The position numbers and the translations under genes are program-made. A DNA stretch of 64,000 nucleotides, from the IMG/VR virus record IMGVR_UViG_3300028648_000064, positions 3,708 to 67,707 of that record, one strand, 5' to 3'. Positions 3,757-38,060 of the stretch are shown here, in pieces. Each line of letters starts with the position of its first letter. Position 1 is the first letter of the stretch. This DNA is from a virus. Below the pieces are notes generated by a model. It was not told where the DNA came from. It saw only the letters and a program-made list of their open reading frames with translations, and ran no database searches.

Positions 3757-3779
3757 GCTGCATCCTCCTCTTGCCGGTT

Positions 3780-10365: not shown

Positions 10366-13300
10366 CTAGGGACAGCTGCCGGTCGTGACCCACTGATCGG
10401 GGAGGGTGAGGCGGCTCCCGTCGATGTCACGCGCGTCGAGCGTCAGGCGCTCGCAGGTCGCGACGGGAAAGCAGGTGCGGCCGAGCGCGTTCGCGACGAG
10501 CGGCGGATACGCGAGGCCGCTCGCCCGCCGATACGTGACGACCGCCCCCTCGGCGGGCACCGCCTTTGGCTTCGTGGTCCCGCTCGTCCGCGTGAGCCGC
10601 ATCCAGTCGCGGCAGTCGAACGCGACGCCGCTCGGACTCGGGAGCGCGGTCGGCGTTGCCGTCCGCGTCGGCGAGGGCGTGAGCGTCGGGGTCGCGGTCG
10701 GGGTCGCCGTCGGCGTCGGCGTCGCGGTCGCCGTCTGCCCGGGGAGCGACGTCGGCGTCGGGGTCGCCGTCGCCGTCCCGGTCGGCGTTGGCGTCGGGGT
10801 CGGCGTCGCGGCGCTCACCGTGAAGCTATCGAAGGGGGCACCGGTGTCGTCGCGCGCCTGGCACGTGAGCGTCGGATCGGCGAGCGTGCAGAGCGCGAAG
10901 GAATGCCAGCGCCCCGTCGAGCAGTAGCCCGTGCCGTTGTAGCTCCCGCACCCGGCCGCGACGAACGGCTGGAGATCGCCCCCGCCGGGCACGCACGCCG
11001 CGCCCGCCTGGTCGACGGGCTGACCACTGACGGTCCGGGCCCCGCCGTCGAGCGGCGCGCCGCCGCCGCCGACGACTACGTGCCGCGTCGTCTGGCCGTC
11101 CTGGTTCGGGCTAGTGGTCGCCGGATCACTCGTCAGGCTCGCGCCGTTGTAGTCGTCGAGGACGCGCGTGCGTTCCCAGAGATGGGCGTGGCCCCAGAAC
11201 GCGAGCTGCACCCCGAAGGCTTCGAAGAGCGGCGCGAACCGGTGGCGCGTGGCCGGGCTCGACGCCGGCGCGGTCCCGAGGCAGGCCCCGCCGGGGCACT
11301 CGGCGGCGGACGCGCAGCCGTTCCCGACGTTCGCGCCGGCGTCGCACCGCCCGTTCGCGCAGACGTACGGCGCCTGGTGCCCGAGGGCGAGCTTCCACGC
11401 ACGGGACGCCGACGGTTGCAGGCGGTTCCAGAGCCACGTTTTCTGATTCGCGCCCGTCACCCAATCTTGCGCGCCCGTCGGCCCGAAGTTCGTGTTGACG
11501 ACGAGGAAGGTCGCGGGGCCGGCATCGAGCGCGTACCACGCTTCTTCCCGCGTCCCCCCGGGGTTGCCGTTCACCGGCGCCGCAAAGAGCGCCCGCTGCA
11601 CGTGCGTCGCCGTCCATTCCGTGAGCACCCCATCCTGCGAGCCGTCGGCGCGCCGGAGGTCGCGATGCCCGAGTGCCAGGAAGGTCGGCGTCCGCGCGAA
11701 GACCTCCGCGTAGGGCACGAGGACCTTCTGCTCCCAATCGAGGAGGCGCGTCGCGAGGCCCTCGTGGGCGTTGTCGCCGACCCAGAAGAGGAGGTCCGGC
11801 GCCGCGGTCCGGATCTGCGCCGCGATCCGCTGCTGCGGGCAGGTGCCGCCGGCGTAGCAACTCGCGTCGGCGCCATCCACGCCCGCGTCGCCGACGACCG
11901 CGAACGTCATCGGCGCCAGGTCGTTCGCGGCCCGGAGCGTCCGGAACGCGCGGGTCCCCGCGACCTCGAGCACGGTCACGCCGTTGGTGGAGAGCCGAAA
12001 GTAGTACGGCGTCCCCGGGAGGAGGTCGGTGAGGTCGACGCGGTGGCAGGTGCCGGCGGCGCCGAGCTCGCACGTCGCCTGCTGGCTCTGCGTCGCGAAA
12101 AACCCGAGCGCCGTGGTCGTCCCGTAGTCGACCCGCGCGTTTCCCGGCTGATCCGTCCACCAGAGGATCGACATCGTCGTCGGATCGTTCAGCGGGTTCT
12201 GGATGAGCGGCCCGCAGCCGGCGGCCCCCGACGGGCAGCGGAGGCCCGAGACGACGGCGGTCGCGGTCGGCGTCGGCGTCGGGGTCCGGGTCGGCGTCGG
12301 GGTGCGGGTCGGGGTCGCGGTGCGGGTCGGCACCGCCACGCCGCCGACCTCGCGGGCGCCTGCGTCCGGTTGGCTGTCACGCGCGTTCCCGTCGGCGTCG
12401 ATCGCCTGATAGTCGCAGTCCGCGTTGACGGTGCACGGCCAGCCCTTCAGGCCCTCGGTGCAGCGGCCCGCGACGACGGTGCCGCAGACGCCGGGATCGA
12501 TCAGGATCGCGGTCGTGCCTTTGTTCTTGGCGACGGTGTCGCCGCTTTGCAGCGCGTAGCGGCCGGGGCCGGAGCCGCCGACGAAGAGCGGATCGGTCGT
12601 CGTCCAGACGTCGCCCTCGAACGAGTCCGGCCCGAACCAGAGGCCCGCGTCGCCGTCGGCCTGCGCCTGCGCGAGCTGGGTGATGCTCCGTCCCGTGATC
12701 GTCTGCGGCGTGTCGTCCATGCACGGGACGAGCGGGTTCTGGCAGATCTTGCCGGGGCCGCACGGGTTCGGCGCGCCGCCCGGCTCGCTGATCCCGTTCC
12801 CGGTGCCGTTCCGCTGGACGGTGACGTTGTGGTCCCACGCGTTGACGACGTTCGTCGTCATGCGGTCGATGAAGTGGCCGTACTGGTTGGTGGTCGAAAA
12901 GATGTTGTTCTGCACGACCTGGAGGTAGCTGTTGTCGAACGAGAAGATCGCGTAGCCCGTCGTCCGGCACGTGTTGTGGACGATCACCTGACGCGCGGGA
13001 CACGAGTAGCTCGAGAAGCACGAGCCCGGGCCGACGCCCTCGTTGTTGATCCAGAGGCAGTCCGTCGACCCGCTGTACTTGTAGAGGCCGTCCGCTTCCT
13101 CGGAGTAGTTGCCCCAGCTCGTAATGTGATGGCTCTTCCCGGCCGGGTGGCCGCCGAAGTCAAAGTTGTCTTCGCCACACCGCCGGACATCGTTGAACCG
13201 GATCGTGCCGAACGCCGCGCCCGCCGGCTGGATGCCGTCATGATCGTCGCAGCCCGTCATGCACCGACACGCGGTGCATGAACTCGCCGGGAGCGGGCCG

Positions 13301-14982
13301 CCGGTCGAGCTGTTGAGGCCGTTGCACGGGGGCGACGACGTCTCGCAGGGGCACGCGCTGCCGTTGACGCCGCGCCCGTCGCACTGCGCCGCCGTGACCG
13401 TCCGGGCGCGGTGGTCCCAGATGAGGTTGGACTCGATGTCGAAATCCTGGCTGCACCAGAGCGTGATCGCGCCGAATTGATTGCCGTTGCGCTCGATGCG
13501 GTTCCGCCGGATCGCGATCCCGCGTTCCTGCCGCCCGCTCTCGACGCAGTCGACGTCGCTCCCCGCGCCGTTGTACGACCCGATCTCGATCGTCGGGAAA
13601 TCCGAGCCGATGTCGTTCGGGACGTTGTCGTGGATCCAGTTGTCCTCGATCACGAAGCCCCGCATCGGCGCCGTCCCGGCCGCGGCGAGGCTGATCGCCC
13701 CCATCGGATAGCCGGCGATCTCGAAGCCGGAGAGGCCGTGCGTATCGCCCGTCGTCGCGAACCCATTCGGCTTCGTGTACGCCAGGCCGTCGCAGACGCC
13801 GCCCGGGCCGTCGTTCGCCGGCATGCCGGTGCCGTCCATGCCAACCCACGTCCCCGGATCGACGGGCCCGGAGTCGTCGGCCTTCCACGCGTGGTAGGTC
13901 ATGCCGGCCTTCTGCACGAAGCAGTTTTGCTGGAGCGTGCACGAGGCGTGCGTGCAGGTGAACGCGGTGTAGGCGCCGCCGCCGATCGGCTGCGTCACGC
14001 GCACCTGCACCCGGCCGGAGAACGCCGTCCGGCGAATCTGCGTGAAGTACTGCACCGAGGCACACGGATGCACCGCACCGCAGGTCGGATCGTCCGCGAC
14101 GGTCATGCCCGTGAAGTTGCCGATGCGGACGATCGTCATCGCGGCCGTCGCGGTCACGGTGGGGGTCGGGGTCCTGGTCGCGGTCGGCGAGAGCGTCGGG
14201 GTCGGCGTGCGCGTTGGTCCCGTCGTGGTCGGCGTCGGCGTCGCCGTCGGCGACAGGGTGGGCGTTGCGGTGACCGTCACCGTCGGGGTCGGCGTCCGCG
14301 TCGCGGTGACCGTCGGCGTCACCGCCGTGGTCGTCGGCGTTGCGGTCGGTGTCGGCGTGGCAGTCACCGTCGGCGTCGGGCCGCCGCTCCCGAGAAACAC
14401 CTGGAACCACGCATCCTCGCCGGTGTCGACGCCCGTCGCGTGGAACGTGCCACCGGTATAGCTCGCGCCGTCGTTGTTGGTGTTGACGCGCACGCAGCGA
14501 AGACCGGCGCCGCACGACGCCGCGCCGCCGCTGATCGTGCCGGCGTCATGCAAGAGGATCCAGTAGTTGCCGGGCGGCGCCGGCTTCGTGCCCGACCACG
14601 TGAAGGTCTGCACCGGGTCGGTCGCCGGACTCGTCGGCAAGTCGGTCACGTTGATCGGGTCCGACGGCGGCCCGATCGGATCGCCGATGCCGCCGGTGCC
14701 GGTGATCGCGTAGAGCTGGAGGAAGATGGTGCCGCCGGTGTTCCCCGTATTATTGAAGGCACTCCAGGCGATTTGACAGATCGGCTCCCCGGGGTTCGTA
14801 TTCGTGACGCCCTGCTTCGGCGCCCCGTCGAGGTGCACGCCGGACTCGAGCCGCCAGTAGTCGTTGCGCGGGCCGGTCTGCGCCATCGTACTCGACGGGG
14901 CACACTGGGCGCGCGCCTCGCCCGCGAGCGCAAGGCTGAGCGCGAGGCCCAGCGGCACGACCCATTGGAACCGCCGGCTCAG
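10366..14982 (-). CDS. secreted multidomain protein: beta-helix repeats, FN3 plus purple-acid-phosphatase-like metallophosphoesterase, Pro/Thr linkers (~1538 aa)
   Basis: Signal peptide ending GEARA-Q; G-I-x-I parallel beta-helix repeats; DADGNAR..PDAGARE; GDAG/GDN/GHAH phosphoesterase motifs; start inferred at a CTG overlapping the upstream TGA. Confidence 0.75.
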   Translation of the reverse strand: MSRRFQWVVPLGLALSLALAGEARAQCAPSSTMAQTGPRNDYWRLESGVHLDGAPKQGVTNTNPGEPICQIAWSAFNNTGNTGGTIFLQLYAITGTGGIGDPIGPPSDPINVTDLPTSPATDPVQTFTWSGTKPAPPGNYWILLHDAGTISGGAASCGAGLRCVRVNTNNDGASYTGGTFHATGVDTGEDAWFQVFLGSGGPTPTVTATPTPTATPTTTAVTPTVTATRTPTPTVTVTATPTLSPTATPTPTTTGPTRTPTPTLSPTATRTPTPTVTATAAMTIVRIGNFTGMTVADDPTCGAVHPCASVQYFTQIRRTAFSGRVQVRVTQPIGGGAYTAFTCTHASCTLQQNCFVQKAGMTYHAWKADDSGPVDPGTWVGMDGTGMPANDGPGGVCDGLAYTKPNGFATTGDTHGLSGFEIAGYPMGAISLAAAGTAPMRGFVIEDNWIHDNVPNDIGSDFPTIEIGSYNGAGSDVDCVESGRQERGIAIRRNRIERNGNQFGAITLWCSQDFDIESNLIWDHRARTVTAAQCDGRGVNGSACPCETSSPPCNGLNSSTGGPLPASSCTACRCMTGCDDHDGIQPAGAAFGTIRFNDVRRCGEDNFDFGGHPAGKSHHITSWGNYSEEADGLYKYSGSTDCLWINNEGVGPGSCFSSYSCPARQVIVHNTCRTTGYAIFSFDNSYLQVVQNNIFSTTNQYGHFIDRMTTNVVNAWDHNVTVQRNGTGNGISEPGGAPNPCGPGKICQNPLVPCMDDTPQTITGRSITQLAQAQADGDAGLWFGPDSFEGDVWTTTDPLFVGGSGPGRYALQSGDTVAKNKGTTAILIDPGVCGTVVAGRCTEGLKGWPCTVNADCDYQAIDADGNARDSQPDAGAREVGGVAVPTRTATPTRTPTPTRTPTPTPTATAVVSGLRCPSGAAGCGPLIQNPLNDPTTMSILWWTDQPGNARVDYGTTTALGFFATQSQQATCELGAAGTCHRVDLTDLLPGTPYYFRLSTNGVTVLEVAGTRAFRTLRAANDLAPMTFAVVGDAGVDGADASCYAGGTCPQQRIAAQIRTAAPDLLFWVGDNAHEGLATRLLDWEQKVLVPYAEVFARTPTFLALGHRDLRRADGSQDGVLTEWTATHVQRALFAAPVNGNPGGTREEAWYALDAGPATFLVVNTNFGPTGAQDWVTGANQKTWLWNRLQPSASRAWKLALGHQAPYVCANGRCDAGANVGNGCASAAECPGGACLGTAPASSPATRHRFAPLFEAFGVQLAFWGHAHLWERTRVLDDYNGASLTSDPATTSPNQDGQTTRHVVVGGGGAPLDGGARTVSGQPVDQAGAACVPGGGDLQPFVAAGCGSYNGTGYCSTGRWHSFALCTLADPTLTCQARDDTGAPFDSFTVSAATPTPTPTPTGTATATPTPTSLPGQTATATPTPTATPTATPTLTPSPTRTATPTALPSPSGVAFDCRDWMRLTRTSGTTKPKAVPAEGAVVTYRRASGLAYPPLVANALGRTCFPVATCERLTLDARDIDGSRLTLPDQWVTTGSCP

Positions 14983-17786
14983 AGCGTCCCCCAGAGCCAG
15001 CAGTGCACGTCGCTGGTGGTGACGTTGAAGCTGCCGCTCGTCGTCGAGATCCGCAGCTCGAGGCGCTGACTCGCCGTGAACGTGTTGTTGCTCGAGAGCG
15101 TCGCCGTGCAGGTCGACGCGCCATCGCTGATGACGCAGTCCTGGCTGCCCGCGTCCGCGCCGTCCTTGAACAGCTCGACGAGGTAGCACGGGTCCGCCGT
15201 GCAGTCGGCCGCCGTCGTCGTATTCGTGCCGTCCGCGAGGACGGCGCACGTGATCTCCGTCGCCGTCCCGGCCGCCGGGACGCGCACGAGATCTTCACCG
15301 GACCACCCGCTCCCGTTGCCTTGCAGCACTTGGTCGGTGAGTCCTGCCGCGGCGTTCGTGCGGAGGCCGTGCGTGAAGAGCGTCCGGCCCCCGACGTTGG
15401 CGAAGACCGTGCAGCGGAGGTCGTCGCTCGTCGACGTGAGATCCGCCGCGGTGGTGAGGCGGAGGTCGGCGACCTGGGCGGCACTCCAGGTGTTGGCGGA
15501 CGCGAGCGTGACGTTACACGAACCGCTGCTGTTCGCGATGTCGCAGTCCTGCGTGCCGGCGTCGGCGCCATCCACGAAGACCTCGACCTTGTGACACGGG
15601 CTCGTGGTGCACGCGGCCGATCCGAAGCCGCTCGAGGAATCGATGATGCCGCAGGTCACATGGGACCCGGTGGTCGACGCGGGGAAGCCGACCAGCGCCG
15701 CCTGCACGCCAAGCACCGCGTCCGTCTGCCCGGCGGCAGTGTCGAGCGTCAGCGTGTGCAGCATCGTGGCCTCGTTCGAGGCCGTGCCCCAGAGCCAGCA
15801 TTGCAGGTCGGAGGTCGTGCTCGTGAGGTCCGCGGGGGTCGTCACCCGGAGGTCCACCCGGGTGCCGGCCGACAGCGCCGTATTCGTGGCGAGGGTCGCC
15901 GTGCAGCCCTGGGCCCCGTTCGCGATCGTGCAATCCTCGGACCCGAGGTCCGACCCGTTCGCGAAGATCTCGATCGCGTAGCAGGGGGAGGTCGTGCACG
16001 CGGCCGTCTGGAGCCCGTTGGCCGTGCCCCCGCCGCCGTTGTTGGCGAGCAGGCACGTGAGGTGATTCGCCGTCGTCGCCGAGGCTGGGAGGGCGATCTG
16101 GCGGGCCGCCATGATCGCATCGGCCGCCCCCGCCTCGGTATTCGTCCGGAAGACGTCGAGCATGAGCGCCTCGCCGCCACCCGGCGTGCTGGTCGGCGTG
16201 GGGGTCGGCGTGCGCGTGGCCGTCACGGTCGGGGTTGGCGTTCGGGTCGGGGTCGGGGTCACCGTGACCGTCGGCGTCGGGGTCGCGGCTTGGCCGACGA
16301 CGAGCGTGTAGTCGCCGTCCGCTCCGTTGAACCCATCGACGATGATCCAGTAGGTCGTGCCGCTCGTGACCGGCCAGGTGAGCGACGACCCGTTGCCGCT
16401 CGGCGCGCAGCCGGTCGTATCGTCGTTGCACTTGAGCTCGTCCGCCGTCGGGCCCGAGCAGGCGGTGCCGTGGACGTAGAGGAGCGTGTCGAAGTTCGTG
16501 GTCCCGCCGCAGGTGTACGCGAAGGCGGTGCCGGTGAAGTTCGGCGTCCATTCGTGCACGACTTCCGGCGACGTGTCGGAGGGGTTGCAGCTTCCGGCGA
16601 GCGTGCTCGTCGCGCCGACCGTCGTGCCATCGACCGTGTCGCCGCCCGCTGCCAGGATGATCGGCTCATCGCAGGCAGGGACCGGCGTGGCGGTCACGGT
16701 GGGCGTCGGGGTCCGCGTCGCGGTCACCGTCGGCGTCGGGGTCGGGGTCCGGGTCGGGGTGCGCGTCGGCGTCGGCGTCCCGCCGCCCACGCCATAGACC
16801 GTGAAGAGGAGATCGTCGTTCGCTTCGTTCCCGAGGTACCAGGTGTTGAAGCCGAGGCCGCCATAGGACTCTTGCCCCGCAGAGGCCCACCGGACCGCCG
16901 TCCCGACCGAATCGTTCACGAGCGCGATCCAGTAGTGCGCGGCCTGGCTGACCGGGCTCGCGAAGGTGAACGTGACGAGCGTGCCCGTGCCGCTCGCCGT
17001 GCCGCACGTCGACGTCCCATCGAACGGCGCGTCTTTCACCGTCCCCGGGAGCGAGGTGGCGACGAGCGCCGAGCTCGCGCCGGTCGCGGCGTCCGGGCAT
17101 GCCGTCAGGCCGCAGCCCGCCAGCGGATCGTCGGCATAGAGCTCGACGTGGAGGTGCTGCCCGGGGATCGGCGTCGGATTCCCGGCGGGCGCGTTCCCGA
17201 GACACAGGTCCACGCGGCAGATGGCGACCCCGCTGCTGTTGCTGACCCGCTGGCGGAGGTTGTTCGTGCCCGCCGCCCCGCCGGTATAGAAGGGCTCGAG
17301 CGACCAGAAGCCGCCGACCGGGGGCTGGTGGTTCGTGAGGAGCACGTGGCAGCCGGGGGTCACCGTGACGGTCGGCGTCGGGGTCCGGGTGCTGGTCGCC
17401 GTCGCCACGACGCCCGTCGGGGTCGCCGTGCGGGTCGCCGTCGGCGTCACCCCGCCGCCCGGCGTATGCGTCGGGGTCGGCGTCGCCGGCTGCGTGCAGG
17501 CGTAGCGCGCGGTCTCCCGGACGCCATGCGGGTACGCGATGTCGATCAGCTGCGGCTCGAGGCGCGCGCAGTAGCGCCCGTAGCGATCGACCGTCGGCTG
17601 CGCCAGCACCGTTTGATCGCTGTGCCGCCGAATCACGACGGTGCCGGTCGCCGGCACCATGCAACCGCCCGACTTGACGAGCACGTCCTCACAGAAGAGC
17701 GACTCCGCCGCGAGATGATGCGGGAGCGCCGCCAGCAGACACACGAGGACGACCACGCCGAGCGGCGTGCGGGACGATGAACGCAT
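14979..17786 (-). CDS. secreted Pro/Thr-linker protein with a PPC-like domain and three C-terminal Cys-containing repeats (935 aa)
   Basis: AGGAG RBS; signal peptide; FDTLLYV...CNDD...GTTYWIIVDGF (PPC-like); three repeats of LTC...CTTSPCY.IEIF..G.D.G..DC.I. Confidence 0.8.
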   Translation of the reverse strand: MRSSSRTPLGVVVLVCLLAALPHHLAAESLFCEDVLVKSGGCMVPATGTVVIRRHSDQTVLAQPTVDRYGRYCARLEPQLIDIAYPHGVRETARYACTQPATPTPTHTPGGGVTPTATRTATPTGVVATATSTRTPTPTVTVTPGCHVLLTNHQPPVGGFWSLEPFYTGGAAGTNNLRQRVSNSSGVAICRVDLCLGNAPAGNPTPIPGQHLHVELYADDPLAGCGLTACPDAATGASSALVATSLPGTVKDAPFDGTSTCGTASGTGTLVTFTFASPVSQAAHYWIALVNDSVGTAVRWASAGQESYGGLGFNTWYLGNEANDDLLFTVYGVGGGTPTPTRTPTRTPTPTPTVTATRTPTPTVTATPVPACDEPIILAAGGDTVDGTTVGATSTLAGSCNPSDTSPEVVHEWTPNFTGTAFAYTCGGTTNFDTLLYVHGTACSGPTADELKCNDDTTGCAPSGNGSSLTWPVTSGTTYWIIVDGFNGADGDYTLVVGQAATPTPTVTVTPTPTRTPTPTVTATRTPTPTPTSTPGGGEALMLDVFRTNTEAGAADAIMAARQIALPASATTANHLTCLLANNGGGGTANGLQTAACTTSPCYAIEIFANGSDLGSEDCTIANGAQGCTATLATNTALSAGTRVDLRVTTPADLTSTTSDLQCWLWGTASNEATMLHTLTLDTAAGQTDAVLGVQAALVGFPASTTGSHVTCGIIDSSSGFGSAACTTSPCHKVEVFVDGADAGTQDCDIANSSGSCNVTLASANTWSAAQVADLRLTTAADLTSTSDDLRCTVFANVGGRTLFTHGLRTNAAAGLTDQVLQGNGSGWSGEDLVRVPAAGTATEITCAVLADGTNTTTAADCTADPCYLVELFKDGADAGSQDCVISDGASTCTATLSSNNTFTASQRLELRISTTSGSFNVTTSDVHCWLWGTL

Positions 17787-17798
17787 GGGCGGGGGCTC

Positions 17799-24848: not shown

Positions 24849-24877
24849 GGGCGGTTTGCTGGTGTTAAGGGGCTGGC

Positions 24878-25201: not shown

Positions 25202-25202
25202 G

Positions 25203-27170: not shown

Positions 27171-27308
27171 GGGATCAATCCTTTCGTGCCGCCGACGTCG
27201 GGGACGCCGGGTATGCGGACGCACGACGGCCCGACGACCGGAGCAGTCGCTCCCGCGTCAGGTCGCGTGACATCGTGCTGTGCGTGGTGGTGAGTGCGGC
27301 GGGTTCGG

Positions 27309-28346: not shown

Positions 28347-29143
28347 GCCGCGCTCGCCGTGAGGCGCTTCAAGCGCCCCGTCGCATGCCACGTCTCGACA
28401 AAGCGCCGGCGATTCGGCCCCTCGTCGCATCCCGACCGCGTGCCGTGCTCGTCGTGGATCACGACGGCGTCCGTCGCCACGTGCACGTCGACGCCGCGCT
28501 CGCTCGCGCGGAGACCGAGGTCCACGTCTTCGTAGCCGCCGAACCCTGGGTAGGCTTCGTCGAAACCCCCGAGCGCATCCCAGAGCTGGCGCGCGAGCAT
28601 GAGCGCCGCGCCAGTCGCCCATCGACAGGCGCGCGGATCCGCGGGGAGCCGCGCCATCGCCGCGTCCCGATCGAGGTGCACGGGGTTCCCGTCGTCGTCG
28701 AGACCGCCACCGGCGCTGTTCACGCGGCCTGCGCGGTTGACGATCACTGGCGCCACGAACAGATGCGCCCGCCTGGCCCAGAGCGCCGCGAGTGTCGCCG
28801 GCGTCACTTCCGCATCGTCCGACAGCAAGAGCACGTGCGAGGACGCCGATGCCGCCACGGCGTCGTTACACCCCGCGGCGAAGCTCCGGTTGCTTCCACG
28901 CAACACGGTCCAGCCTCGCCGCTCCGCCGCCTCCGCCGTCTCGCGGTCCCCGCCGTTCCAGACCAGAATGCGCTCGAGGAGCATGGCGCCACACGGAGGG
29001 AGACTGTCCGCGAGGCGCGTGAAGTAGTCGGGCCGTCGGTAGGACAAGGTCACGACCGTGACGCCTTCGGGGTACGCCGGCACCCCCGCGCGCGCGAGGC
29101 CGGTGGGCATCGCGGCGGCGCGGTCGTGCATGTCGGAGGTCAT
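28343..29143 (-). CDS. glycosyltransferase family 2
   Basis: NRSFAAGCN, VLLLSDDAEV, WATGAALML, FDEAY...GYEDVDLGLR. Confidence 0.88.
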   Translation of the reverse strand: MTSDMHDRAAAMPTGLARAGVPAYPEGVTVVTLSYRRPDYFTRLADSLPPCGAMLLERILVWNGGDRETAEAAERRGWTVLRGSNRSFAAGCNDAVAASASSHVLLLSDDAEVTPATLAALWARRAHLFVAPVIVNRAGRVNSAGGGLDDDGNPVHLDRDAAMARLPADPRACRWATGAALMLARQLWDALGGFDEAYPGFGGYEDVDLGLRASERGVDVHVATDAVVIHDEHGTRSGCDEGPNRRRFVETWHATGRLKRLTASAA

Positions 29144-29643: not shown

Positions 29644-29647
29644 GGGG

Positions 29648-30307
29648 TCAGTCGTTCGGGATCGCGCCCGTCGGCCCGGCTTCGGTGAAGATCGCCGCGA
29701 TGACGCGCGCCTTCAGCTCTTCGCGGATCGACGGCACCGTCTCGTCGACGCTCCGCTGAATGGTCCGCGTCGGCCGGATGGTCGCGCGCTTCAAGCCGAC
29801 GAAGAGCGGCGTGATCGTCCGGCTCTTCTCCGTCTTCTTGCCGAACAAGATGGGGATGCCGCCGCCCCCCGCGCTGATCGTCTTCCAGAAGGTGCCGCCC
29901 TTGTAGATGTCCGCGGCCTCGCGCGCGGTGAATCGCTGCACCCCTGCCGCGGTGAGCGCCGCCGAGAGCGGCACCGTCAAGAGCCGCGCCCGCTTCGGCG
30001 TGATCGTGCCGCCGTACTCGTGGATGCGGGCGTAGCGGAGCGCCTCCTCGCCGCGGAGCACGCCGACGCGCGTCGTGATGACGTCGCCGTCCCGGTCGGT
30101 CTTGCTGTCGAGGCTCCGCCGATACGTACCGCTCCGGACGCGCAGCGTCTCGCCGGTCGCGAGCTCGCGGGCCCGATTCGCCGCCCGCCGCCCACCGCGG
30201 CGCATGACGTCAAGGCTGATGAGGGCGAGGCGCCGCGGCCCGTCCGCGAGGGTCTTGGTGAGATCCTCGAGCGGCTTCAGGTCGAGATCGACGATCGGGT
30301 TGGCCAT
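29648..30307 (-). CDS. neck / tail-completion protein (HK97 gp10-like)
   Basis: RVRSGTYRRS, YARIHEYGGTI motifs; basic protein. Confidence 0.75.
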   Translation of the reverse strand: MANPIVDLDLKPLEDLTKTLADGPRRLALISLDVMRRGGRRAANRARELATGETLRVRSGTYRRSLDSKTDRDGDVITTRVGVLRGEEALRYARIHEYGGTITPKRARLLTVPLSAALTAAGVQRFTAREAADIYKGGTFWKTISAGGGGIPILFGKKTEKSRTITPLFVGLKRATIRPTRTIQRSVDETVPSIREELKARVIAAIFTEAGPTGAIPND

Positions 30308-30314
30308 TGGCCCC

Positions 30315-30932
30315 TTACCAGTGCCGCCGGTAGCGATCGATCGCCGCGGACGCGTTCGTGCAGAGCGGCGTATTCCGGAAGTACGTGACCGACCCGCCGG
30401 ATTGCGCCTTTCCGCTGATGTCCACGTTCTCGGGGCGCTTCAAGCTCAAGAGCACCTGCTCGATGCAGGGGCGGCGGAGATTGGCGGGGATCTGGTGGAC
30501 GTCGAGGGCGAGCCCGCCAACGTACGTGATCTGGAGCGTCTGCGGGCCGTCGACGATGCCTGCCGCGGAGCGCAGGATCACCTGCCCCGTTCGCCCGCCT
30601 TGGTGGAGCGCGTAGGACGTCGGGTCGAGGGCCGTGGCACTCGCGAAGTCGCTGTCGGCATCGCTCTTGATGCTCACGATCGAGGCCACGGGATACGCCC
30701 GGAGCGCGAAGACGCGCTGCCCGCACTCGACGTCGAGCACCTCCGTCCATGGAAGGTCGACGGTGCTCTTCTTGAACCACCGGCCGGTATCCTGCTCGGC
30801 GGTCAGGCTGAAGTCGTGGATGGCGTCCGCGATCGCCTCCAGCGTCGCGAGATCAGTCGTGTTCGCCCACGCTTCCATGCCCTTCGAGTTGAGGACGTCC
30901 GCCACCGTGGCGAGGGCGATGGTCGGGGTCAC
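30315..30932 (-). CDS. head-tail connector / adaptor (205 aa)
   Basis: LRAYPVASIVSI, ITYVGG...IPANLRRPC, IDRYRR; GTGA overlap start. Confidence 0.75.
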   Translation of the reverse strand: MTPTIALATVADVLNSKGMEAWANTTDLATLEAIADAIHDFSLTAEQDTGRWFKKSTVDLPWTEVLDVECGQRVFALRAYPVASIVSIKSDADSDFASATALDPTSYALHQGGRTGQVILRSAAGIVDGPQTLQITYVGGLALDVHQIPANLRRPCIEQVLLSLKRPENVDISGKAQSGGSVTYFRNTPLCTNASAAIDRYRRHW

Positions 30933-31318
30933 TGGGTCCGCTCCACGCGCATGCCGTAGATTTCGACGAACGGACTGCCGCTCTGCGTATGCACCGCCTT
31001 CACGCGGAAGACGTGGAGCTCGGTGTCGCCGATCCCGAGGCGGGGATTCACGATCGGCGCGTCGGCGAGCTGCACGAGCCACGTGAAGAGGCCGGACGTC
31101 GCGTGGACGGTGCCGCTGTTGGCGCCCTTCACGTTCGCGTTCGCGTGGCCGACCTTCCGGTTGTTGATGGCGTCGGCGGTCTCGTGGCCCTCTCCGTTCC
31201 AGAGGTACAGCTCCAAGCTCGTCAGGTTCGCGAGCGTGATCGGCGCGCCCGTGCGGTCGACGAGCGTGAGCTCGATCGGCGCCACGACGCCCTGCTTGAT
31301 CGGGAAGACCTTTTTCAC
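30929..31318 (-). CDS. small beta-sandwich virion protein
   Basis: PIELTLVDRTGAPITL...GLFTW pattern typical of BppU-N-like domains; coupled by GTGA overlaps. Confidence 0.55.
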   Translation of the reverse strand: MKKVFPIKQGVVAPIELTLVDRTGAPITLANLTSLELYLWNGEGHETADAINNRKVGHANANVKGANSGTVHATSGLFTWLVQLADAPIVNPRLGIGDTELHVFRVKAVHTQSGSPFVEIYGMRVERTQ

Positions 31319-31500: not shown

Positions 31501-31649
31501 GGAGTCGCCCCTCGCAACAGCGAGACCACGAACGGAAGCGCAGCGCCGTAGGCGAACGCCGTAGCGATCACGATAGCGGCAGTGACGAGGATCCCGAGCG
31601 CAGGTAACGCGCGCGGCCTCGCGCGCCGGGTTCCGGTGGACACCGTCAT
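31497..31649 (-). CDS. small membrane peptide (50 aa)
   Basis: One hydrophobic segment; ATGA overlaps at both ends. Confidence 0.45.
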   Translation of the reverse strand: MTVSTGTRRARPRALPALGILVTAAIVIATAFAYGAALPFVVSLLRGATP

Positions 31650-31777
31650 GCCGTCCACCACGCGACGAGCTCCGACGCCCACCGCCAGCACGCCCACACC
31701 GCCACAAGCACCGCAGCACCAAGGGCGAGGACCACGAGGGTATCGATCCCGGCATAGGGGGAGCCGTGGGCGTTCAT
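31646..31777 (-). CDS. small membrane peptide (43 aa)
   Basis: MNAHGSPYAGIDTLVVLALGAAVLVAVWACWRWASELVAWWTA; ATGA overlap. Confidence 0.45.
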   Translation of the reverse strand: MNAHGSPYAGIDTLVVLALGAAVLVAVWACWRWASELVAWWTA

Positions 31778-31811
31778 GCGGCGCTCCGGGGAGTGTCCAG
31801 CGGGCAGGACA

Positions 31812-31841
31812 TTGACGGCCGCCAGATCGATTGCGTAGCGT
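31812..31841 (+). promoter_or_regulatory. candidate sigma70-type promoter for the acyltransferase
   Basis: TTGACG-18 nt-TAGCGT; ATG follows 8 nt later with no RBS. Confidence 0.4.
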
Positions 31842-31848
31842 CCCGCCG

Positions 31849-32823
31849 ATGCGCCCGGACCTCTCGCCCGCGATCGACTGGCTGAAGGCCCTCGCGATCA
31901 TCGCCGTTGTCGCGGCGCACGCCGGGCCATTCGGCTTCACACAGGCCCACCCCGTCGATGCGATCGTGCGCTTGCGGATCGTGTCCTTTCACGTCTCGGT
32001 GTTCCTGTTCGTGTCCGGATTCCTGCACAGCAGCGCCACGCCGCTGACGGCAGCAGAGACGTGGCGACGGCTTCAGCGCATCCTCGGCCCCTACCTGGTC
32101 GCGTCGCTCGCGATCACGGCCTTGCACCTGATGCCGCACGCGACGTGGAGCGCGTTGCCGTGGAATCTCGCGACCGGCAACGCACACGGGACCTACTATT
32201 ACGTGCTCGTCTGGTGCGGCTGCGTCCTCTCCGGGTTGGTGTGGTCGCGGCTGCGTGGCGGCGGACTGCTCGCGGCGCTCGCGCTGGTGGCGGTCGCGAC
32301 CGAATGGCGGAGCCGGCATGCGATCGTCGGCGTGTTTTGGGGCATCCGCGACCCGCTGTTCCAAGGGTGGTTGTTCTGTTACCTCGCCGGCTGGTGCGCG
32401 CAGCGATACGACGCGCTCGACGTCGTGCGCCGGATTCCCCGCGCCAGCGTCGGCGTGGCCCTCGTCGGTAGCCTGCCGTGGCTGCTGCGCGATAGCGCCG
32501 CTACGGCGGTCACGGATCGCCGCATCCTCTACGCGGCGAGCGTCGTCCTCCTCGTGACCGCGCTCGCACGCCACGCCCCGCCCCTGGTTCGCTGGCTGAG
32601 TCGTGAAACCTTGTGGGTGTACCTGGCGCACATGGCGATTCTGGCGCCGCTCGTCCGCGCAACCACCGCATGGCCGCCGATCGCGCGCCTCCCGGTCGTC
32701 GCGATCGTCACGCTCGCCGCGTGCGCGGCAGGCATCGCGCTCGCGCGGTGGCTCCAGCGCGTCGTGCGTCCCAACGGGCATCGTCACCACGCCTCGTCGA
32801 TGCAGACGAGCACGGTGCAATGA
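31849..32823 (+). CDS. acyltransferase family 3 (OafA-like membrane O-acyltransferase)
   Basis: IDWLKALAIIAVVAAH, FHVSVFLFVSGF, HGTYYYV, SRETLWVYLAH; about 10 TM segments. Confidence 0.9.
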   Translation: MRPDLSPAIDWLKALAIIAVVAAHAGPFGFTQAHPVDAIVRLRIVSFHVSVFLFVSGFLHSSATPLTAAETWRRLQRILGPYLVASLAITALHLMPHATWSALPWNLATGNAHGTYYYVLVWCGCVLSGLVWSRLRGGGLLAALALVAVATEWRSRHAIVGVFWGIRDPLFQGWLFCYLAGWCAQRYDALDVVRRIPRASVGVALVGSLPWLLRDSAATAVTDRRILYAASVVLLVTALARHAPPLVRWLSRETLWVYLAHMAILAPLVRATTAWPPIARLPVVAIVTLAACAAGIALARWLQRVVRPNGHRHHASSMQTSTVQ

Positions 32824-35800
32824 TGGACACCGCTCGACCATGACCCCGTGCGCGCCGCCTTGATGTGCCAAATGCTGCTTGTCGCCACCGTGTCCTTGTG
32901 GGTCGCGTCGACGCACGCCCACTCATTGGTAGCCGACGTCCCGGTGATGGTGCAGGTGACGGTTCCGGTACTCCATGTGCAGAGCCGCGCCGCCCCGTCC
33001 GTGCCGCCGGTCGCTGCACAGCTCGAGACGGGCGCCGTCTCCACGGTGAAGACGTAGGTCGCCGCGTTCGGCGCCTCGATTTGCGTCTGGCACGAGAGGC
33101 CCGAAATGGTGACGCCGGCACCGACCGGGAGGAAGGCGCCATCCTGCCCGGTGTTGGCGTAGCTGCCCGCGAAATAGGACGTGCCCGCATTGCTGCCGCC
33201 GAAGGCCACGAGCGCGCACGCGCGCACCGGCACGGCCGCCGATCCGTTCCCGACCGTTACCTGCGGCACCGTTGCCGAGCCGCCGTTCGTGTCGAAATGG
33301 AGCCGCCCCGCCGTCGTGGAGCCGGCGCTCGTCGAGTTGGGCACCGTGAACGTCGCCGGGGCGAGCGTGTCGCCGCCGCCTGCGGCGTTGGAATGGTTGT
33401 GCGTCGCGTTCGCGAAGCTCGCGATCGTAGGCGTCGTCAGCGTCTTGTTGGTCAGCGTCTCCGAGCCCGCGAGCGTCGCGACATCGTTGTCCGTCGTCGC
33501 GGCGTTGATCTTGGCGACGGAGTCCCATTCGGTGTCGCGCGTGAGCGTCGACGGAATCTCGCCGTCGGTCACGTTGATCATGGCCGCATCGAAGGTGAAC
33601 CGGCTGAGATTGCAGGCCGCGATGGTGCTGGTAGTGCCCGTGTCGACCTTACACCGCACGTCCCACGTCCCATTGATCGCGGTCGTGATGTAGTGCTCCA
33701 GGTGCATGAGGCACTGCTTGGCCGCCGTGCCTTCGCAGGTCACCCGGCGACTGGCGCCACCGCCGGAGACGTCCACGGCGTTGTTCCGCATCTTGCAGGT
33801 GAACGTCTTTGGCAGCGTGCCGCTCGCGCCTGTCATCTCGGCATCGAACGTGAGACGGGTTCCGGCCGCCGTATTCGTCCACGAACTCAAGCTCGCGACC
33901 GTCACGTAGGTGTCGGCCGTCGTGCCGTTCATGTCGCTATCGCAAGTGATGTCCTGCACGTACGTCGCTTGGGCGCCGACGCGGCGCCACTCGCCTGCGG
34001 TGTCGCAGTCGCCGCTACTCGGGACACACGACCAGACGCGGTAGTCGTCTTGATCCACGCAAATCTGGCCGACCTTGCCGTCGGTTAGCCCGGTGCAGTC
34101 GGTCGCATGCGATCGCGTCTTGTTGGTGAATGCCGTGAAGTCCGACGAGCCGAGGCACCCCGGCTGCGACCCCGACGCGGCATTGCACGAGAGCGCGAGC
34201 GTCCCGGCTTGGATGCTGCCGGTCGCAACGATCGGCGCGGCGGCGGTGACGGCTGGGGTCGGCGTGAGCGTCGGCGACGGCGTGAATGTCGCCGTGGGGG
34301 TCGGGGTCGGCGCCGTCAGGTCATGCGTCACCCCCGCCGCGCGACACTTCTTGGTGTTCGTCGTGAGATCGTACCAGCACTCGCCGTCGATCGGATTCGC
34401 GACCCACGACGCGTCGACGCTCGGCGCATCGCTACTGTCCTCGGCCGCCGCGCCCGTATCGACCCAGTGCACGCGACAGACGCCGTTGCCCGTGCAATCC
34501 GTGCTGCGGGTGCAGGTTGTGCCGTCGTTGCTACCGGCGTGGCACTTGAGCGTCCCCGGCGCCGTGACGGTCGCCAGCCGGTCGTAGTCGGTGTTCTGCC
34601 GGCCATAGACGCGGTAGCTCGTCGCGCGTCCGATCCGATCCCAAATGACCGTGACGGCGCACGCGCTCCCGGTACATCCCGACGTCGTCACCGACACAGG
34701 CGTCGACGCCGTCGTCTCGCCGTACTCCGTGAGGCCCGTGACCTTGTACTCGTACGTCTCGTTGGGAAGCGAGCCGCCGCTGGTCGCAAAGGTCGGTGTC
34801 CGTGCGGTCGTCACCGTCAAGGGGTGCGTCTGCGGCGCTGGGCACTTGAGCGTGCCTTCGTAGCTGCCGCCGCCCCACCGGCTACGCCCCGTGGCGACGT
34901 CCGCGTAGCTCAACGTCCCGGCGATGCGCCGCCGGCATGCGTCGTAGTCCAGCACCCCCGCGACCGCGACCGTCGTTCCCGTACCGACGTCCACCGCCGT
35001 GTGCGGCTGCTCCCACTGGACGACGGAATTGTTGCTCACCACACGGAGCGCCCGGACACTGACCACCGTCCGGTTTTTCTGCGCGCTCGGCGAGTCTTGG
35101 TCGCACGTGATCTGCGAGGTCTTCAGGCCGCTCACGTCCGTGGTCGCGCTCGCCCCGTTCTGGATCACGTTGTTGTCGAGGAATAGATTGAACTCGGTGC
35201 CGCACCCCTGCGCCTGAAACTCCACCACGCCGCCGCTGGCCCCTTCGCGCGTGCCGGCTTGGATGAAGCTGTTCATGACGCCAAAATCGCTCGACGAGTT
35301 GTTGCGCGGGCAGACGTCGGTCGCGTCGCACGTCGATCCCGGGCAGTCGGTCGCTTGCGTGGCGACCGTGCAGAGGCGACCGACGTTCGCGCCGCCGACG
35401 CAGACGGCGCAATCCGCGTTCGCCGCGCACGCGCGCGACGGGAGCGCCGTGCAGGTGTCGCCCCACGGCTCGAAGCGAATCGAGGTCTGCGACGAGTTGG
35501 CCGTGAACCCGAACGTCGTGATGCGATCAAAGACGTTGGTCGCGTTGCCGCGGCCCGTGAAATCGACGTCGCGACCAGCGCCCCAATGCACGAGCGACGC
35601 GTCCCGCACATTGAAACCGAAGGTGCCCCCGGTGGAACACATCGCGTCGCCGTCGCCCCAATGCTGCACGCTCATGCGCTCGAAGCGCACACTCGCGCGG
35701 TCGGTCACGTCGACCGTGCAGTCTGCCGACCCGTGGTAGAGCATCGTCGAGTTTTGGGCGGCGCCGAGATAGGTGATGTGTCCCGGCGAGGGCACGCTTC

Positions 35801-38060
35801 CGGTTCCACCGCCCGAGATAGTTTCGTTGTACCGGCCCGCACCAAGCACGATGCCGTACTGCTTCACGGGGCCGGTACAGGTGCCGGCGTTCGCGGCGGT
35901 GCAGACGCTTGTAGTCGCCGTGCACGTCTCGCCGCCGGGGCAATCGCTGTTCTCGTTGCAGTCCGTCGCCGTCGTCGTGGAGCACCGCCCGCAGCCGAGT
36001 GCTTGATTCCCCGAGCAGGTCGCGAAGCCATTGTCGTTGTTCGCGAGGATCTTCGCGTGCGCGCCGTCAGTGCCCGTCAGCGTGGCGCACGGCGCATTGA
36101 TCGGGCCGCAGTCGGCAGAATCCGTGCCGGCCTTGTCGACGTAGAGCGCGAACGCCGAGATGATTTCGGCTTGCGGCACCGGGATGCACGCGAGCTGCCC
36201 ACCCGTGACCGACGTGACTTGTCCGTCGGGACAGTTGGTGAGGGACGCATTGTTCGTGCCGCCCTTCGCGAGCGGCAGTGTCCCCTCTACTTCGTTCCCG
36301 TCGAGGTCAACTGCACCCGCCGCAATCTGTCCGTCGCCGAGCTGGCCAGAGAGCTGCGAAAACGCCACCTGCGCACACACCGCCGCTCCTGACGTGATGT
36401 CCGTCATGTACTGCCCCGACGTGCAGGCGGTCGGGTCGAAGGCGCCGAAGTCGCCGACCTCGGGCACGTCGTCGTCGGTCTGACACTCGACTCCGGTACC
36501 CCCGCTGGTGCCGCCGAGTGTCTGCGCGTCGGTGCAACTGGAGGCGAGGTTCGTGACCGTGATCGCGTCTCCGCCGCCGGCACTGTGCTCCGTCGCGTGC
36601 GCTTCTTCCTCGAGGTCCGCCGTGATGTCGGTTCCCCCGTTCGCCGCCGTCGCACACTGAATCGCGGACCCGTCGGCGGTGCAGAATCGTCCGGACGTGG
36701 ATACCGTCCCGACCTGCGGGTCGGTCTCCGTCCCGGTGATCGTGACCGTGTTGCCCGACCGGGCGGTTGCGACGATGCCGCCCCCCGCGAGCGTGATGCC
36801 GAGCCCCGAGGTCGCGCCGCCGCTGTCGGCGGTGATCGTGTTGATCTCGTTGGTGGTCGAGCCGTCGACTTCCGTCCCCGTGATGGTGACGGTGTCGCCG
36901 GAGCGGGCCGTGCTGACGATGCCGCCACCGGCCAAGGTGATGCCGAGGCCGCTCGTCGCGCCACCCGCGTCGGCCGTGACGGTGTTGATCTCGTTCGTCG
37001 TGGACCCGTCCACCTCGGTCGCCCCGATGGTGATGGTGTCGGTCGTGGCGTTGCCCGTGATCGTGACGATGCCCGAGGCGGCGAGCGCCAGCGTGTCCGT
37101 CGTGCTGTCGGCGACCGGATCGGTGCCCGAGGGCGCGTCGATCGTCTCGAAAATGTTCTGCAACTCGTTGGTCGTGGAGCCGTCGACTTCACTCGTGAGC
37201 GCGTTTTCCACGCACCCGGTGACATCCGCGCAGGCGAGCGACCCTTGCAGATCCTCGAGATCAAGCACGCTTTCGAGCTCGGATTCGACCGCGAGTTCGT
37301 CGAGATCGTTCGCGCCCATGTCCCCGTCCACGTCGCCGTTCAGCGTGGGATAGGGCGTTGGCGTTTGCGTGGCCGTGACGGTGACGGTTGGCGTCGGTGT
37401 GACCGTGACCGTGGGGGTGGGCGTTGCCGTCGGGGTTGCCGTCGGTGTCGGTCCGAGCGCGATGGTCAGCGTGTCCGTCGAGCTGTCCCCGGTGCAGACC
37501 AGCGGGGCCGGGCACGTAATGTTGAGCGTGTCGGTCGCGTTGTCGGCCACGGGATCGGTGCCGTTCGGAGCGTTGAACGTCTCGAACGAGTTGCCCGCGC
37601 CCCCGCCCGTCGCATCTGCCGCACAGCCCCACGCGCCGCCCGAGAACTTCTGAATCTGCCCGTCCGAGCACGGCGTGATGCCGAGCGTCGCGCCTTCAGT
37701 GCCCGTCTTCGTGAGCCCGCCGCCGCTTGTCGCGTCGGCCACGTAGTCGCCGGTTGTGTGCGTGCCGAGCTCGGGCTGTGCCGTAGCGGTCGCCGTCGGG
37801 GTCGCGCTCACCGTTGGTGTCGGCGTCACCGTGACGGTGGGCGTCGCCGTCCGGGTCGCCGTGGGCGTCGCGGTGGCCGTGGGGGTCGGCGACGGCGTCG
37901 CGGTTGGCCGGAACGGGACGCACGTGCACGCCCCGTCCCCGATGACCCGCACGGCGGCATCCGGTCCGCAGTCGCATGCGAGCGGCGGCCCTTCCCACTG
38001 GGCAAAGCTCCGCCCGGCAACCACGAGGGTCACCAGCAGGACGACAAGAAGGCGCTTCAC
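32784..38060 (-). CDS. giant signal-peptide-bearing fibre/adhesin-like protein (1758 aa)
   Basis: MKRLLVVLLVTLVVAGRSFA-Q; PT linkers; EVDGSTTNE repeats; phage-fibre motifs GTLPLAKGGT and TLTNKTLTTP; beta-helix-like middle; Cys modules. Confidence 0.8.
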   Translation of the reverse strand: MKRLLVVLLVTLVVAGRSFAQWEGPPLACDCGPDAAVRVIGDGACTCVPFRPTATPSPTPTATATPTATRTATPTVTVTPTPTVSATPTATATAQPELGTHTTGDYVADATSGGGLTKTGTEGATLGITPCSDGQIQKFSGGAWGCAADATGGGAGNSFETFNAPNGTDPVADNATDTLNITCPAPLVCTGDSSTDTLTIALGPTPTATPTATPTPTVTVTPTPTVTVTATQTPTPYPTLNGDVDGDMGANDLDELAVESELESVLDLEDLQGSLACADVTGCVENALTSEVDGSTTNELQNIFETIDAPSGTDPVADSTTDTLALAASGIVTITGNATTDTITIGATEVDGSTTNEINTVTADAGGATSGLGITLAGGGIVSTARSGDTVTITGTEVDGSTTNEINTITADSGGATSGLGITLAGGGIVATARSGNTVTITGTETDPQVGTVSTSGRFCTADGSAIQCATAANGGTDITADLEEEAHATEHSAGGGDAITVTNLASSCTDAQTLGGTSGGTGVECQTDDDVPEVGDFGAFDPTACTSGQYMTDITSGAAVCAQVAFSQLSGQLGDGQIAAGAVDLDGNEVEGTLPLAKGGTNNASLTNCPDGQVTSVTGGQLACIPVPQAEIISAFALYVDKAGTDSADCGPINAPCATLTGTDGAHAKILANNDNGFATCSGNQALGCGRCSTTTATDCNENSDCPGGETCTATTSVCTAANAGTCTGPVKQYGIVLGAGRYNETISGGGTGSVPSPGHITYLGAAQNSTMLYHGSADCTVDVTDRASVRFERMSVQHWGDGDAMCSTGGTFGFNVRDASLVHWGAGRDVDFTGRGNATNVFDRITTFGFTANSSQTSIRFEPWGDTCTALPSRACAANADCAVCVGGANVGRLCTVATQATDCPGSTCDATDVCPRNNSSSDFGVMNSFIQAGTREGASGGVVEFQAQGCGTEFNLFLDNNVIQNGASATTDVSGLKTSQITCDQDSPSAQKNRTVVSVRALRVVSNNSVVQWEQPHTAVDVGTGTTVAVAGVLDYDACRRRIAGTLSYADVATGRSRWGGGSYEGTLKCPAPQTHPLTVTTARTPTFATSGGSLPNETYEYKVTGLTEYGETTASTPVSVTTSGCTGSACAVTVIWDRIGRATSYRVYGRQNTDYDRLATVTAPGTLKCHAGSNDGTTCTRSTDCTGNGVCRVHWVDTGAAAEDSSDAPSVDASWVANPIDGECWYDLTTNTKKCRAAGVTHDLTAPTPTPTATFTPSPTLTPTPAVTAAAPIVATGSIQAGTLALSCNAASGSQPGCLGSSDFTAFTNKTRSHATDCTGLTDGKVGQICVDQDDYRVWSCVPSSGDCDTAGEWRRVGAQATYVQDITCDSDMNGTTADTYVTVASLSSWTNTAAGTRLTFDAEMTGASGTLPKTFTCKMRNNAVDVSGGGASRRVTCEGTAAKQCLMHLEHYITTAINGTWDVRCKVDTGTTSTIAACNLSRFTFDAAMINVTDGEIPSTLTRDTEWDSVAKINAATTDNDVATLAGSETLTNKTLTTPTIASFANATHNHSNAAGGGDTLAPATFTVPNSTSAGSTTAGRLHFDTNGGSATVPQVTVGNGSAAVPVRACALVAFGGSNAGTSYFAGSYANTGQDGAFLPVGAGVTISGLSCQTQIEAPNAATYVFTVETAPVSSCAATGGTDGAARLCTWSTGTVTCTITGTSATNEWACVDATHKDTVATSSIWHIKAARTGSWSSGVHHCTVLVCIDEAW

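Follow-up and report, generated by a model that had tools for sequence, protein, structure and literature searches.

Giant cysteine-rich proteins with predicted Sec signal peptides encoded among the virion genes of an activated-sludge phage

By the textbook account, tailed phages are assembled entirely in the cytoplasm, and their receptor-binding proteins are taken to be free of export signals. What, then, are three giant proteins with signal peptides doing among the virion genes of such a phage? We examined this question in a 64-kb stretch (the window; positions 3,708 to 67,707 of IMG/VR record IMGVR_UViG_3300028648_000064) of a single 72,235-bp contig of approximately 70% G+C from an activated-sludge metagenome. 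The three genes were found as the sequence-only reading had placed them, co-oriented on the minus strand: giant 1 (G1; 1758 amino acids [aa], 32784-38060), giant 2 (G2; 935 aa, 14979-17786), and giant 3 (G3; ~1538 aa, 10366-14982). Together they make up 17.6% of the genome, and their G+C content at third codon positions (GC3; 0.87 to 0.92) is like that of the rest. Based on their sequences, we consider it very probable that the giants are exported through Sec, cleaved by signal peptidase, and folded with the help of disulfides outside the cytoplasm.

All three N termini have the n-h-c layout of a signal peptide ending in an AxA-type site, as had been proposed. In G1, the arrangement is M-KR-LLVVLLVTLVVAG-RSFA with predicted cleavage between SFA and Q21 (residues 1 to 20; 38001-38060, minus strand). 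The G2 signal peptide is MRSSSRTP-LGVVVLVCLLAAL-PHHLAA, cleaved by prediction between LAA and E28 (17706-17786, minus), and that of G3 is (M)SRRFQW-VVPLGLALSLALAG-EARA with the predicted site between ARA and Q26 (14908-14982, minus). We scored them using a heuristic rule of our own that asks for a net positive charge in the first ≤12 residues, a core of 9 to 16 uncharged residues with a mean Kyte-Doolittle value of ≥2.0, and small residues at -3 and -1. Of 13,404 windows taken from inside the remaining proteins of the phage, only 1.1% passed this rule, while all three giants passed at their N termini. Elsewhere in the genome, just four open reading frames passed, all of them small and membrane- or lipoprotein-like.

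For G3, the open reading frame stood, but its start may be either of two codons. The frame starts at the G2 stop, and codon 14982 is a noncanonical CTG overlapping that stop, with a Shine-Dalgarno-like GGGGGA 4 nt upstream. The only canonical start nearby is GTG 14958, 8 codons downstream, from which G3 would keep its hydrophobic core and cleavage site and lose the Arg-Arg n-region; G3 passes our rule only with the CTG. Two other possibilities were considered and rejected. Tat export does not fit, since an RR pair is missing from G1 and G2, and although G3 has SRRF, its ortholog carries just one Arg. Lipoprotein anchoring does not fit, as a lipobox is present in none of the three. Searches of Pfam and NCBIfam gave no beta-barrel, no S74 domain (no Peptidase_S74 match in Pfam), and no NCBIfam C-terminal sorting domain in the giants. 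In G1, in G3, and in 12 of 23 G1-family members (P0161-P0185), the mature protein is predicted to start with Gln. A “Q rule” is known for signal-peptidase substrates of Bacteroidetes, and this +1 Gln recalls it.

The composition of the giants sets them apart from the remaining proteome. Cys accounts for 3.4 to 4.0% of their residues versus 1.3% in the rest, and Thr for 13 to 17% versus 6.3%. The canonical virion proteins contain 0 to 0.9% Cys: 0 of 2349 residues in the tape measure protein (TMP), 0 of 219 in Neck1, 9 of 1484 in the J-like fiber, 7 of 751 in the portal, and 4 of 446 in the capsid protein. Mature G1, G2, and G3 have 70, 34, and 52 Cys, respectively. The claim that these residues are paired was borne out, as the count is even in 12 of 12 linker-bounded domains (4, 4, 42, and 20 in G1; 4, 6, 6, and 18 in mature G2; 4, 28, 16, and 4 in G3), which random parity would give with a chance of ~2e-4. 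Compared to P0004 and P0005, Cys were gained in pairs. The linkers themselves are the reported (PT)n tracts, three or four in each giant, at residues 49-91, 202-240, and 1245-1272 of G1, 97-146, 334-371, and 500-538 of G2, and 200-277, 884-911, and 1388-1446 of G3. Their DNA repeats occur only in the three giant genes. Matches of PHROG 15511 to all three giants cover the PT linkers only and were discarded as low complexity. “Mucin-like” is a compositional analogy only, and O-glycosylation of the PT linkers is a candidate modification. Precedents for cytoplasmic glycosylation ahead of Sec-type export are the serine-rich-repeat adhesins and HMW1, and mycobacteriophages provide one for virion glycosylation by phage glycosyltransferases. 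Separately, a 42-nt stretch is 76% identical between G3 (11305-11346) and G1 (35361-35402); it encodes a common Cys-rich loop, C-x-G-A-N-V-G-x-x-C ... [DE]-C-P-G-x-x-C, inserted in otherwise unrelated domains.

Could the giants instead stay in the cytoplasm? The hydrophobic N termini would then be nonfunctional, the Cys would bind metals or oxidize after lysis, and the proteins would be ordinary, cytoplasmically assembled fibers. The heuristic nature of our signal-peptide scoring and the uncertain G3 start codon would allow for this, as would the one HxH in G1, since trimeric fibers use HxH metal sites. However, 25 of 28 family members carry n-h-c and AxA features exactly at the N terminus although the sequence there is not conserved, Cys parity is even domain by domain, and the phage's other virion proteins avoid Cys. 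The Cys spacing also fits disulfide-rich secreted repeats and not Zn clusters. We regard retention in the cytoplasm as very unlikely.

The family data come mainly from the G1 core (beta-helix plus C-terminal domain), which has 21 clusters at an E value of ≤1e-30 among 1.84 billion representatives. Among its best 28 relatives, 25 have a signal peptide and 3 to 5.6% Cys; of the other three, two are fragments and one has no Cys. The mature Cys count is even in 18 of 23 members of the G1 family (P = 0.005). Signal peptides are kept functionally, not in sequence, in these 25 beta-helix relatives, and the same holds for P0027 and a G3 ortholog on contig L014. Subgroups of the G1 relatives share a conserved module directly after the signal peptide. 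Taken together, the signal peptides, the even Cys counts, the family conservation, and the Cys-poor virion proteins argue for the export and oxidative folding that the sequence-only reading had proposed.

The sequence-only reading had asked whether relatives keep both the signal peptides and the gene order. Signal and Cys are retained, and the gene order is retained in one contig, other lineages having different junctions. That contig, L014 (9.5 kb, 69% G+C), carries in order the end of another Cys-rich giant, an HNH gene, the G3 ortholog, the tail-tip protein, and the J-like fiber. Identity is 60% for the G3 ortholog (over its C-terminal 677 residues), 54% for the tail-tip protein, and 56% for the J-like fiber. 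The frame of the G3 ortholog runs upstream of its called start, and the extension gives a different, equally signal-like N terminus. The gene between the two giant genes (L014:878-1732, minus) encodes an HNH/AP2-type homing endonuclease on the opposite strand and with lower GC3. Elsewhere, G1-like giants lie between the terminase (TerL) and portal genes in three SU10-like contigs, just after the portal (portal/capsid side) in a phage with a GpA terminase, after the lysis genes in L019, and adjoining integrases in L021. We ruled out positional equivalence with the SU10 tail fibers because the SU10 fiber genes come after the adaptor gene (PMC9509320). Another contig, L012, has a patatin 78% identical to that of our phage (L012:12057-12986) and an unrelated tail module. 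It encodes a 1273-aa signal-peptide protein that combines the G2 triple repeat, a G3-like beta-helix, and the G2 PPC-like domain, which suggests that the lysis genes move from phage to phage along with the modules of the giants.

Small genes beside giants in phage-like contigs often encode signal peptides as well, with further examples in IMG/VR contigs. In five unrelated phage contigs (L007, L008, L011, L019, and L020), G1-like giants stand in runs of two to three consecutive signal-peptide proteins, whose members are 138 to 164 aa, 282 to 314 aa, or ~1010 to 1030 aa long, the last with Laminin_G_3. We refer to such runs as “secretome islands” in late operons.

We then asked what kind of molecule each giant would be. 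G1 consists of the signal peptide, a 4-Cys mini-domain, PT linkers, fiber repeats, a beta-helix, an FN3-like domain, and a trimeric tip. The fiber repeats (EVDGSTTNE...; residues ~290-465, 36666-37193, minus) correspond to a 144-nt tandem DNA repeat (D6) and are common to proteins annotated as tail-fiber-domain proteins. Both fiber motifs noted earlier are present, GTLPLAKGGT at residue 593 and TLTNKTLTTP at residue 1535. Residues 600-1130 (34671-36263, minus) were modeled with AlphaFold2 as a right-handed parallel beta-helix with Cys-rich inserts (predicted local distance difference test [pLDDT] score of 78.6). Its Foldseek matches were pectin methylesterase, the AlgE4 epimerase, polysaccharide lyases, and phage tailspikes (E values of 7e-5 to 1e-2, with low TM scores), and 13 Cys columns are invariant or nearly so among 23 members of the beta-helix family.

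The C-terminal tip of G1 (residues 1478-1758, 281 residues; 32787-33629, minus) was modeled as an intertwined homotrimer. Structure modeling had been suggested as a way to find trimeric fiber segments, and the tip gave one, with a score of 0.77 compared to 0.00 for the best control. In the calibration of this score, which used two copies, 21 of 30 solved homo-pairs passed the mark and none of 23 single chains did. The trimer had a pLDDT of 75 to 81, a partner pLDDT of ≥74, and contact agreement between runs of ≥75%, while the tip as a monomer had a pLDDT of <35 and an AlphaFold2 monomer of residues 1273-1758 reached 38. In the model, the interface (residues 1521-1575) takes in TLTNKTLTTPTI and the HxH (H1554-N-H). 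No template/variable repeat pair was found, and targeting of the tip by a diversity-generating retroelement was dropped as a candidate. G1 is best described, on these models, as a trimeric tailspike- or fiber-like protein with a signal peptide in place of the N-terminal virion-binding domain.

G2 and G3 would be beads-on-a-string proteins made of binding or enzyme-derived modules that are also found in bacterial secreted proteins. Following its signal peptide, G2 has a 4-Cys N-domain, a 6-Cys beta domain, a PPC-like 6-Cys domain, and a triple 6-Cys repeat (residues 539-935; 14982-16172, minus) in which three tandem ~133-aa units share the same 6-Cys pattern. As a unit, the triple repeat matches viral ESM Atlas clusters of 414 to 458 aa with TM scores of 0.70 to 0.78. 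There were also weaker matches to BclA/C1q-type jelly rolls, and these raise the idea, from structure comparison, that it could be a single-chain pseudo-trimer. Parts of G2 occur in bacterial secreted proteins beside lysyl oxidase, PQQ dehydrogenase, and PPC domains, and also in a chromosomal copy (P0096).

G3 has a signal peptide, an N-domain, a weak NosD-type beta-helix (12334-14151, minus), a purple-acid-phosphatase-like domain (residues 912-1387; 10822-12249, minus), and a 4-Cys C-terminal domain. The phosphatase-like domain scored above the Pfam cutoffs for Pur_ac_phosph_N and Metallophos and gave the PDB match 3zk4, the phosphatase match being the only one in our PDB sequence searches. 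We compared its active site to the motifs GDxG, GDxxY, GNH[DE], H, and GHxH. G3 has GDAG, GDNAH, GHRD, GHQ, and GHAH, so that GNH has become GHR in motif III and Tyr has become His in motif II. The G3 ortholog P0022 (GSMG, GDNAL, GNRD, GHH, and GGDE) has lost motif I (Asp) and motif V (GHxH), while the bacterial homolog P0023 is canonical. With catalytic residues being lost, the domain is more likely to bind than to hydrolyze, and its sequence marks it as probably a former enzyme kept for binding or scaffolding, a pseudoenzyme drifting from enzyme to binder. The decaying site also disfavors G3 as a phosphate-scavenging auxiliary enzyme. A module common to the G2 N terminus and the G3 C terminus was rejected, resting on a marginal BLAST match (E value of 0.005 over 30 residues); a comparison of G2 residues 147-333 to the G3 N-domain gave an E value of 0.07.

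The giants are packed tightly against structural genes, as reported. G1 starts at a GTG that shares bases with the stop codon of the gene before it (GTGA), the ATG of G2 lies 12 nt past the TMP stop with AGGAG 9 nt upstream of it, and the tail-tip gene starts 10 nt beyond the G3 stop. G2 and G3 do split the tail genes, the order being TMP, G2, G3, tail tip, and J-like fiber. The placement of G1 between capsid and connector genes needs one correction: a plus-strand acyltransferase-3 gene (Acyl_transf_3, a membrane O-acyltransferase; 31831-32823, Pfam E value of 4.6e-23, GC3 of 0.88) intervenes before the connectors. A minus-strand open reading frame here (31774-32922) is a spurious high-G+C artifact. 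The 3′ end of the acyltransferase gene overlaps that of G1 by 40 nt, and because the two converge, G1 ends its transcription unit, and structural genes do not border it on both sides. Lying between the head and neck modules, the acyltransferase gene resembles a moron.

Do the exported giants then join the virion? The sequence-only reading had them dock on virions at lysis, in a two-compartment assembly in which giants folded in the periplasm would meet cytoplasm-built particles after holin opening, G1 at the head or neck and G2 and G3 at the tail tip. Several observations speak for this: the giant genes lie within the structural operon and show translational coupling with it, G1 is modeled as a trimeric fiber with tail-fiber motifs and a tip, and its family is nearly limited to phage contigs. 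Modules are swapped among phages with different tails and similar lysis genes (L012), the order of G3, tail-tip protein, and J-like fiber is kept in L014, and the post-signal module in subgroups of relatives may be a docking piece. T4 fibers, moreover, attach in vitro by simple mixing. However, we found no virion-attachment domain after the signal peptide of G1, G2, or G3 (Pfam, PHROGs, and NCBIfam), the insertion points vary among lineages, and a conventional tip made of the tail-tip protein and a signal-less J-like central fiber is complete without the giants. The decaying enzyme domain of G3 also speaks against docking, and we know of no precedent among tailed phages for docking of exported fibers. 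The docking claim did not hold up well, and we rate it as rather unlikely. A broader version is unlikely too, namely, that in this and many other environmental phages disulfide-locked fibers matured in the periplasm join heads and tails built in the cytoplasm once the holin breaches the inner membrane, with PT linkers possibly glycosylated by phage glycosyltransferases.

A second possibility is that the giants remodel the host surface, being shown on the outside of an infected or lysogenic cell, or secreted by it, for superinfection exclusion, receptor masking, or adhesion. Their signal peptides agree with this, and the convergent acyltransferase-3 gene along with several glycosyltransferase genes suggests modification of envelope glycans. 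MAT (mosaic adhesive trimer) fibers are Sec-exported phage-like trimers that decorate a cell surface (PMC10769870), and Lom is a signal-peptide protein encoded among the lambda tail genes (PMC12309495). On the other hand, neither an outer-membrane beta-barrel nor a lipobox nor any known C-terminal sorting domain turned up in the giants, and the 72-kb contig showed no integrase or repressor. No independent promoters were detected, and homologs occur in contigs of SU10-like podophages, typically a virulent group. We judge remodeling of this kind to be improbable.

We favor a reading in which the exported giants act freely or in association with cells over docking to virions after lysis. In this proposal, the giant genes would be cotranscribed late with the virion genes, and the products would leave the cytoplasm via Sec. 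Signal peptidase I would remove the signal peptides, and the many disulfides would form in the periplasm of a diderm host, the host being taken as diderm because the lysis cassette carries a patatin phospholipase and lipoproteins. G1 would form a homotrimeric molecule resembling a tail fiber or tailspike through its fiber repeats, beta-helix, and intertwined tip. Since the giants have no membrane, lipid, or known C-terminal sorting anchor, they would remain soluble until lysis or until type II secretion. They may then bind or cut envelope or matrix glycans, loosening the floc matrix or capsule, or masking or destroying receptors around the burst. We tentatively propose, at somewhat less than an even chance, that the giants are lysis-released or secreted proteins, free or bound to cells or debris, that act on envelope or matrix glycans and are not preassembled virion parts. 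This is in line with the missing attachment and sorting domains, the variable insertion site among phage lineages, and the signal-less J-like fiber already present. It also agrees with the modules common to the bacterial secretome, the beta-helix of a type seen in carbohydrate-active enzymes and tailspikes, the signal-peptide neighbors, the degenerating phosphatase motifs, and the adjoining acyltransferase-3, a family acting on envelope glycans. The two family 4 glycosyltransferase (GT4) genes together with the acyltransferase suggest that glycans matter here.

Several points weigh against this proposal. Support for export comes from heuristic scoring of sequence, and the periplasm itself is an inferred location. 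The G1 model, a trimeric fiber with a receptor-binding-type tip, is exactly what virion fibers look like. The giant genes are coupled by translation inside the structural operon, and scans for promoters and terminators around them gave nothing above chance. Their modules shuffle among unrelated phages as those of receptor-binding proteins do, and 17.6% of a genome would be a costly share to spend on nonvirion proteins.

Comparison to known systems gave partial likenesses. Tailspikes and fibers with beta-helix depolymerase domains (P22-like, CBA120 TSP, and those of Klebsiella and Acinetobacter phages) share with G1 the fiber repeats, beta-helix, trimeric tip, motifs, and late operon. G1 differs in having a signal peptide for a virion-binding domain, 4% paired Cys, (PT)n linkers, and a gene between the head and neck modules. 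The MAT fibers of Bdellovibrio bacteriovorus combine a Sec signal peptide with a phage-like trimer, have swappable tips, and are extracytoplasmic (Caulton et al. 2024, PMC10769870). G1 resembles them in pairing an export signal with a phage-like trimeric fiber. However, MAT fibers are products of a cellular predator with a conserved beta-rich N-domain of ~130 aa and, in many, an S74 chaperone, whereas the giants are phage late genes whose post-signal N termini look unalike in translation. Morons of the lambda Lom/Bor type also encode exported proteins within the tail gene cluster (PMC12309495), but Lom, a small beta-barrel of the outer membrane, is independently expressed in lysogens, whereas the giants are 935 to 1758 aa, soluble by design, and translationally coupled to structural genes. 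Sec signal peptides also occur on genes of Porphyromonas gingivalis phages (Matrishin et al. 2023, PMC10367356), and in some of these the +1 residue is Gln. Those genes are for capsid, spanin, and small proteins of unknown function, with no mention of fiber-like giants or a disulfide-rich design. G3 is like purple acid phosphatases and other calcineurin-like metallophosphoesterases in its Pur_ac_phosph_N and Metallophos domain and departs from them in the motif changes described above.

Our literature searches found no account of exported, disulfide-rich, fiber-like giants in tailed phages. Exported, disulfide-bonded, fiber-like late proteins would imply either a periplasmic leg of virion assembly or a class of extracellular adhesins and enzymes with which the phage conditions the surface of its host or the biofilm matrix. 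If true, either would alter the prediction of receptor-binding proteins from metagenomes and of host range, and expression of such proteins would need a periplasmic or oxidizing system. What this case contributes is a single phage with three such proteins, their clean contrast in composition to its own virion proteins, and a trimer model for one of the three.

Family searches showed a siphovirus-type late region around the giants, and nearly all genes of the contig are on the minus strand. In gene order, these encode an HNH endonuclease (48315-48914), the large terminase (46393-47883), a portal fused to MuF (44123-46378), a 949-aa AAA protein (41233-44082), and the HK97-type capsid (39800-41140). 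A first GT4 glycosyltransferase (38504-39493) comes between the capsid gene and the pair formed by G1 and p148, a 148-aa protein encoded directly upstream of it (38057-38503). Past G1 and the plus-strand acyltransferase are a head-tail adaptor (30315-31082), Neck1/tail completion (29648-30307), a second GT4 glycosyltransferase within the tail module (27309-28622), a tail protein (26190-27224), and the 2349-aa TMP immediately upstream of G2 (17799-24848; PhageMin_Tail, E value of 1.2e-23), all on the minus strand. G3 is followed on the same strand by the conserved 278-aa tail-tip protein, which has a discoidin-like fold and belongs to a large viral family (9519-10355), and the 1484-aa J-like central tail fiber (5081-9535; phrog_31, E value of 5.4e-17; Laminin_G_3), which has no signal peptide and 0.6% Cys. 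The lysis cassette comes after the J-like fiber, with an M15 peptidase, the patatin-like phospholipase (2639-3763), and lipoproteins.

Searches for the wider distribution of this phage gave little. GenBank phages contained no G1 relative and only portal matches too distant to point to a host, IMG/VR contained no relatives of the capsid protein, G2, or G3, and scans of JGI (Joint Genome Institute) metagenomes using the tail-tip protein and J-like fiber as queries gave no matches. A GTDB genome scan with G2 returned two weak domain matches, in Calditrichaeota and Myxococcales metagenome-assembled genomes, too little to name a host. Other wastewater and bioreactor runs did contain contigs, identical or nearly so, from this phage or its close relatives; all of these were short, and no usable RNA evidence came with them.

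Several other features of the contig are of note. An 827-aa protein encoded from 63383 to 64000 and on beyond the window (L018:91-2574) has an N-terminal Acb3 domain (E value of 1.8e-71), an inhibitor of the cyclic oligonucleotide-based antiphage signaling system (CBASS). The contig also encodes a SocA/Panacea antitoxin-like protein and a ClpP/SDH-type serine protease, and an IS1-like transposase fragment lies at its end. Lastly, the glycan-gene region contains three 90-nt stretches that are 74 to 76% identical and ~2 kb apart (50493-50582, 52376-52465, and 54650-54739), which probably mark paralogous small genes.

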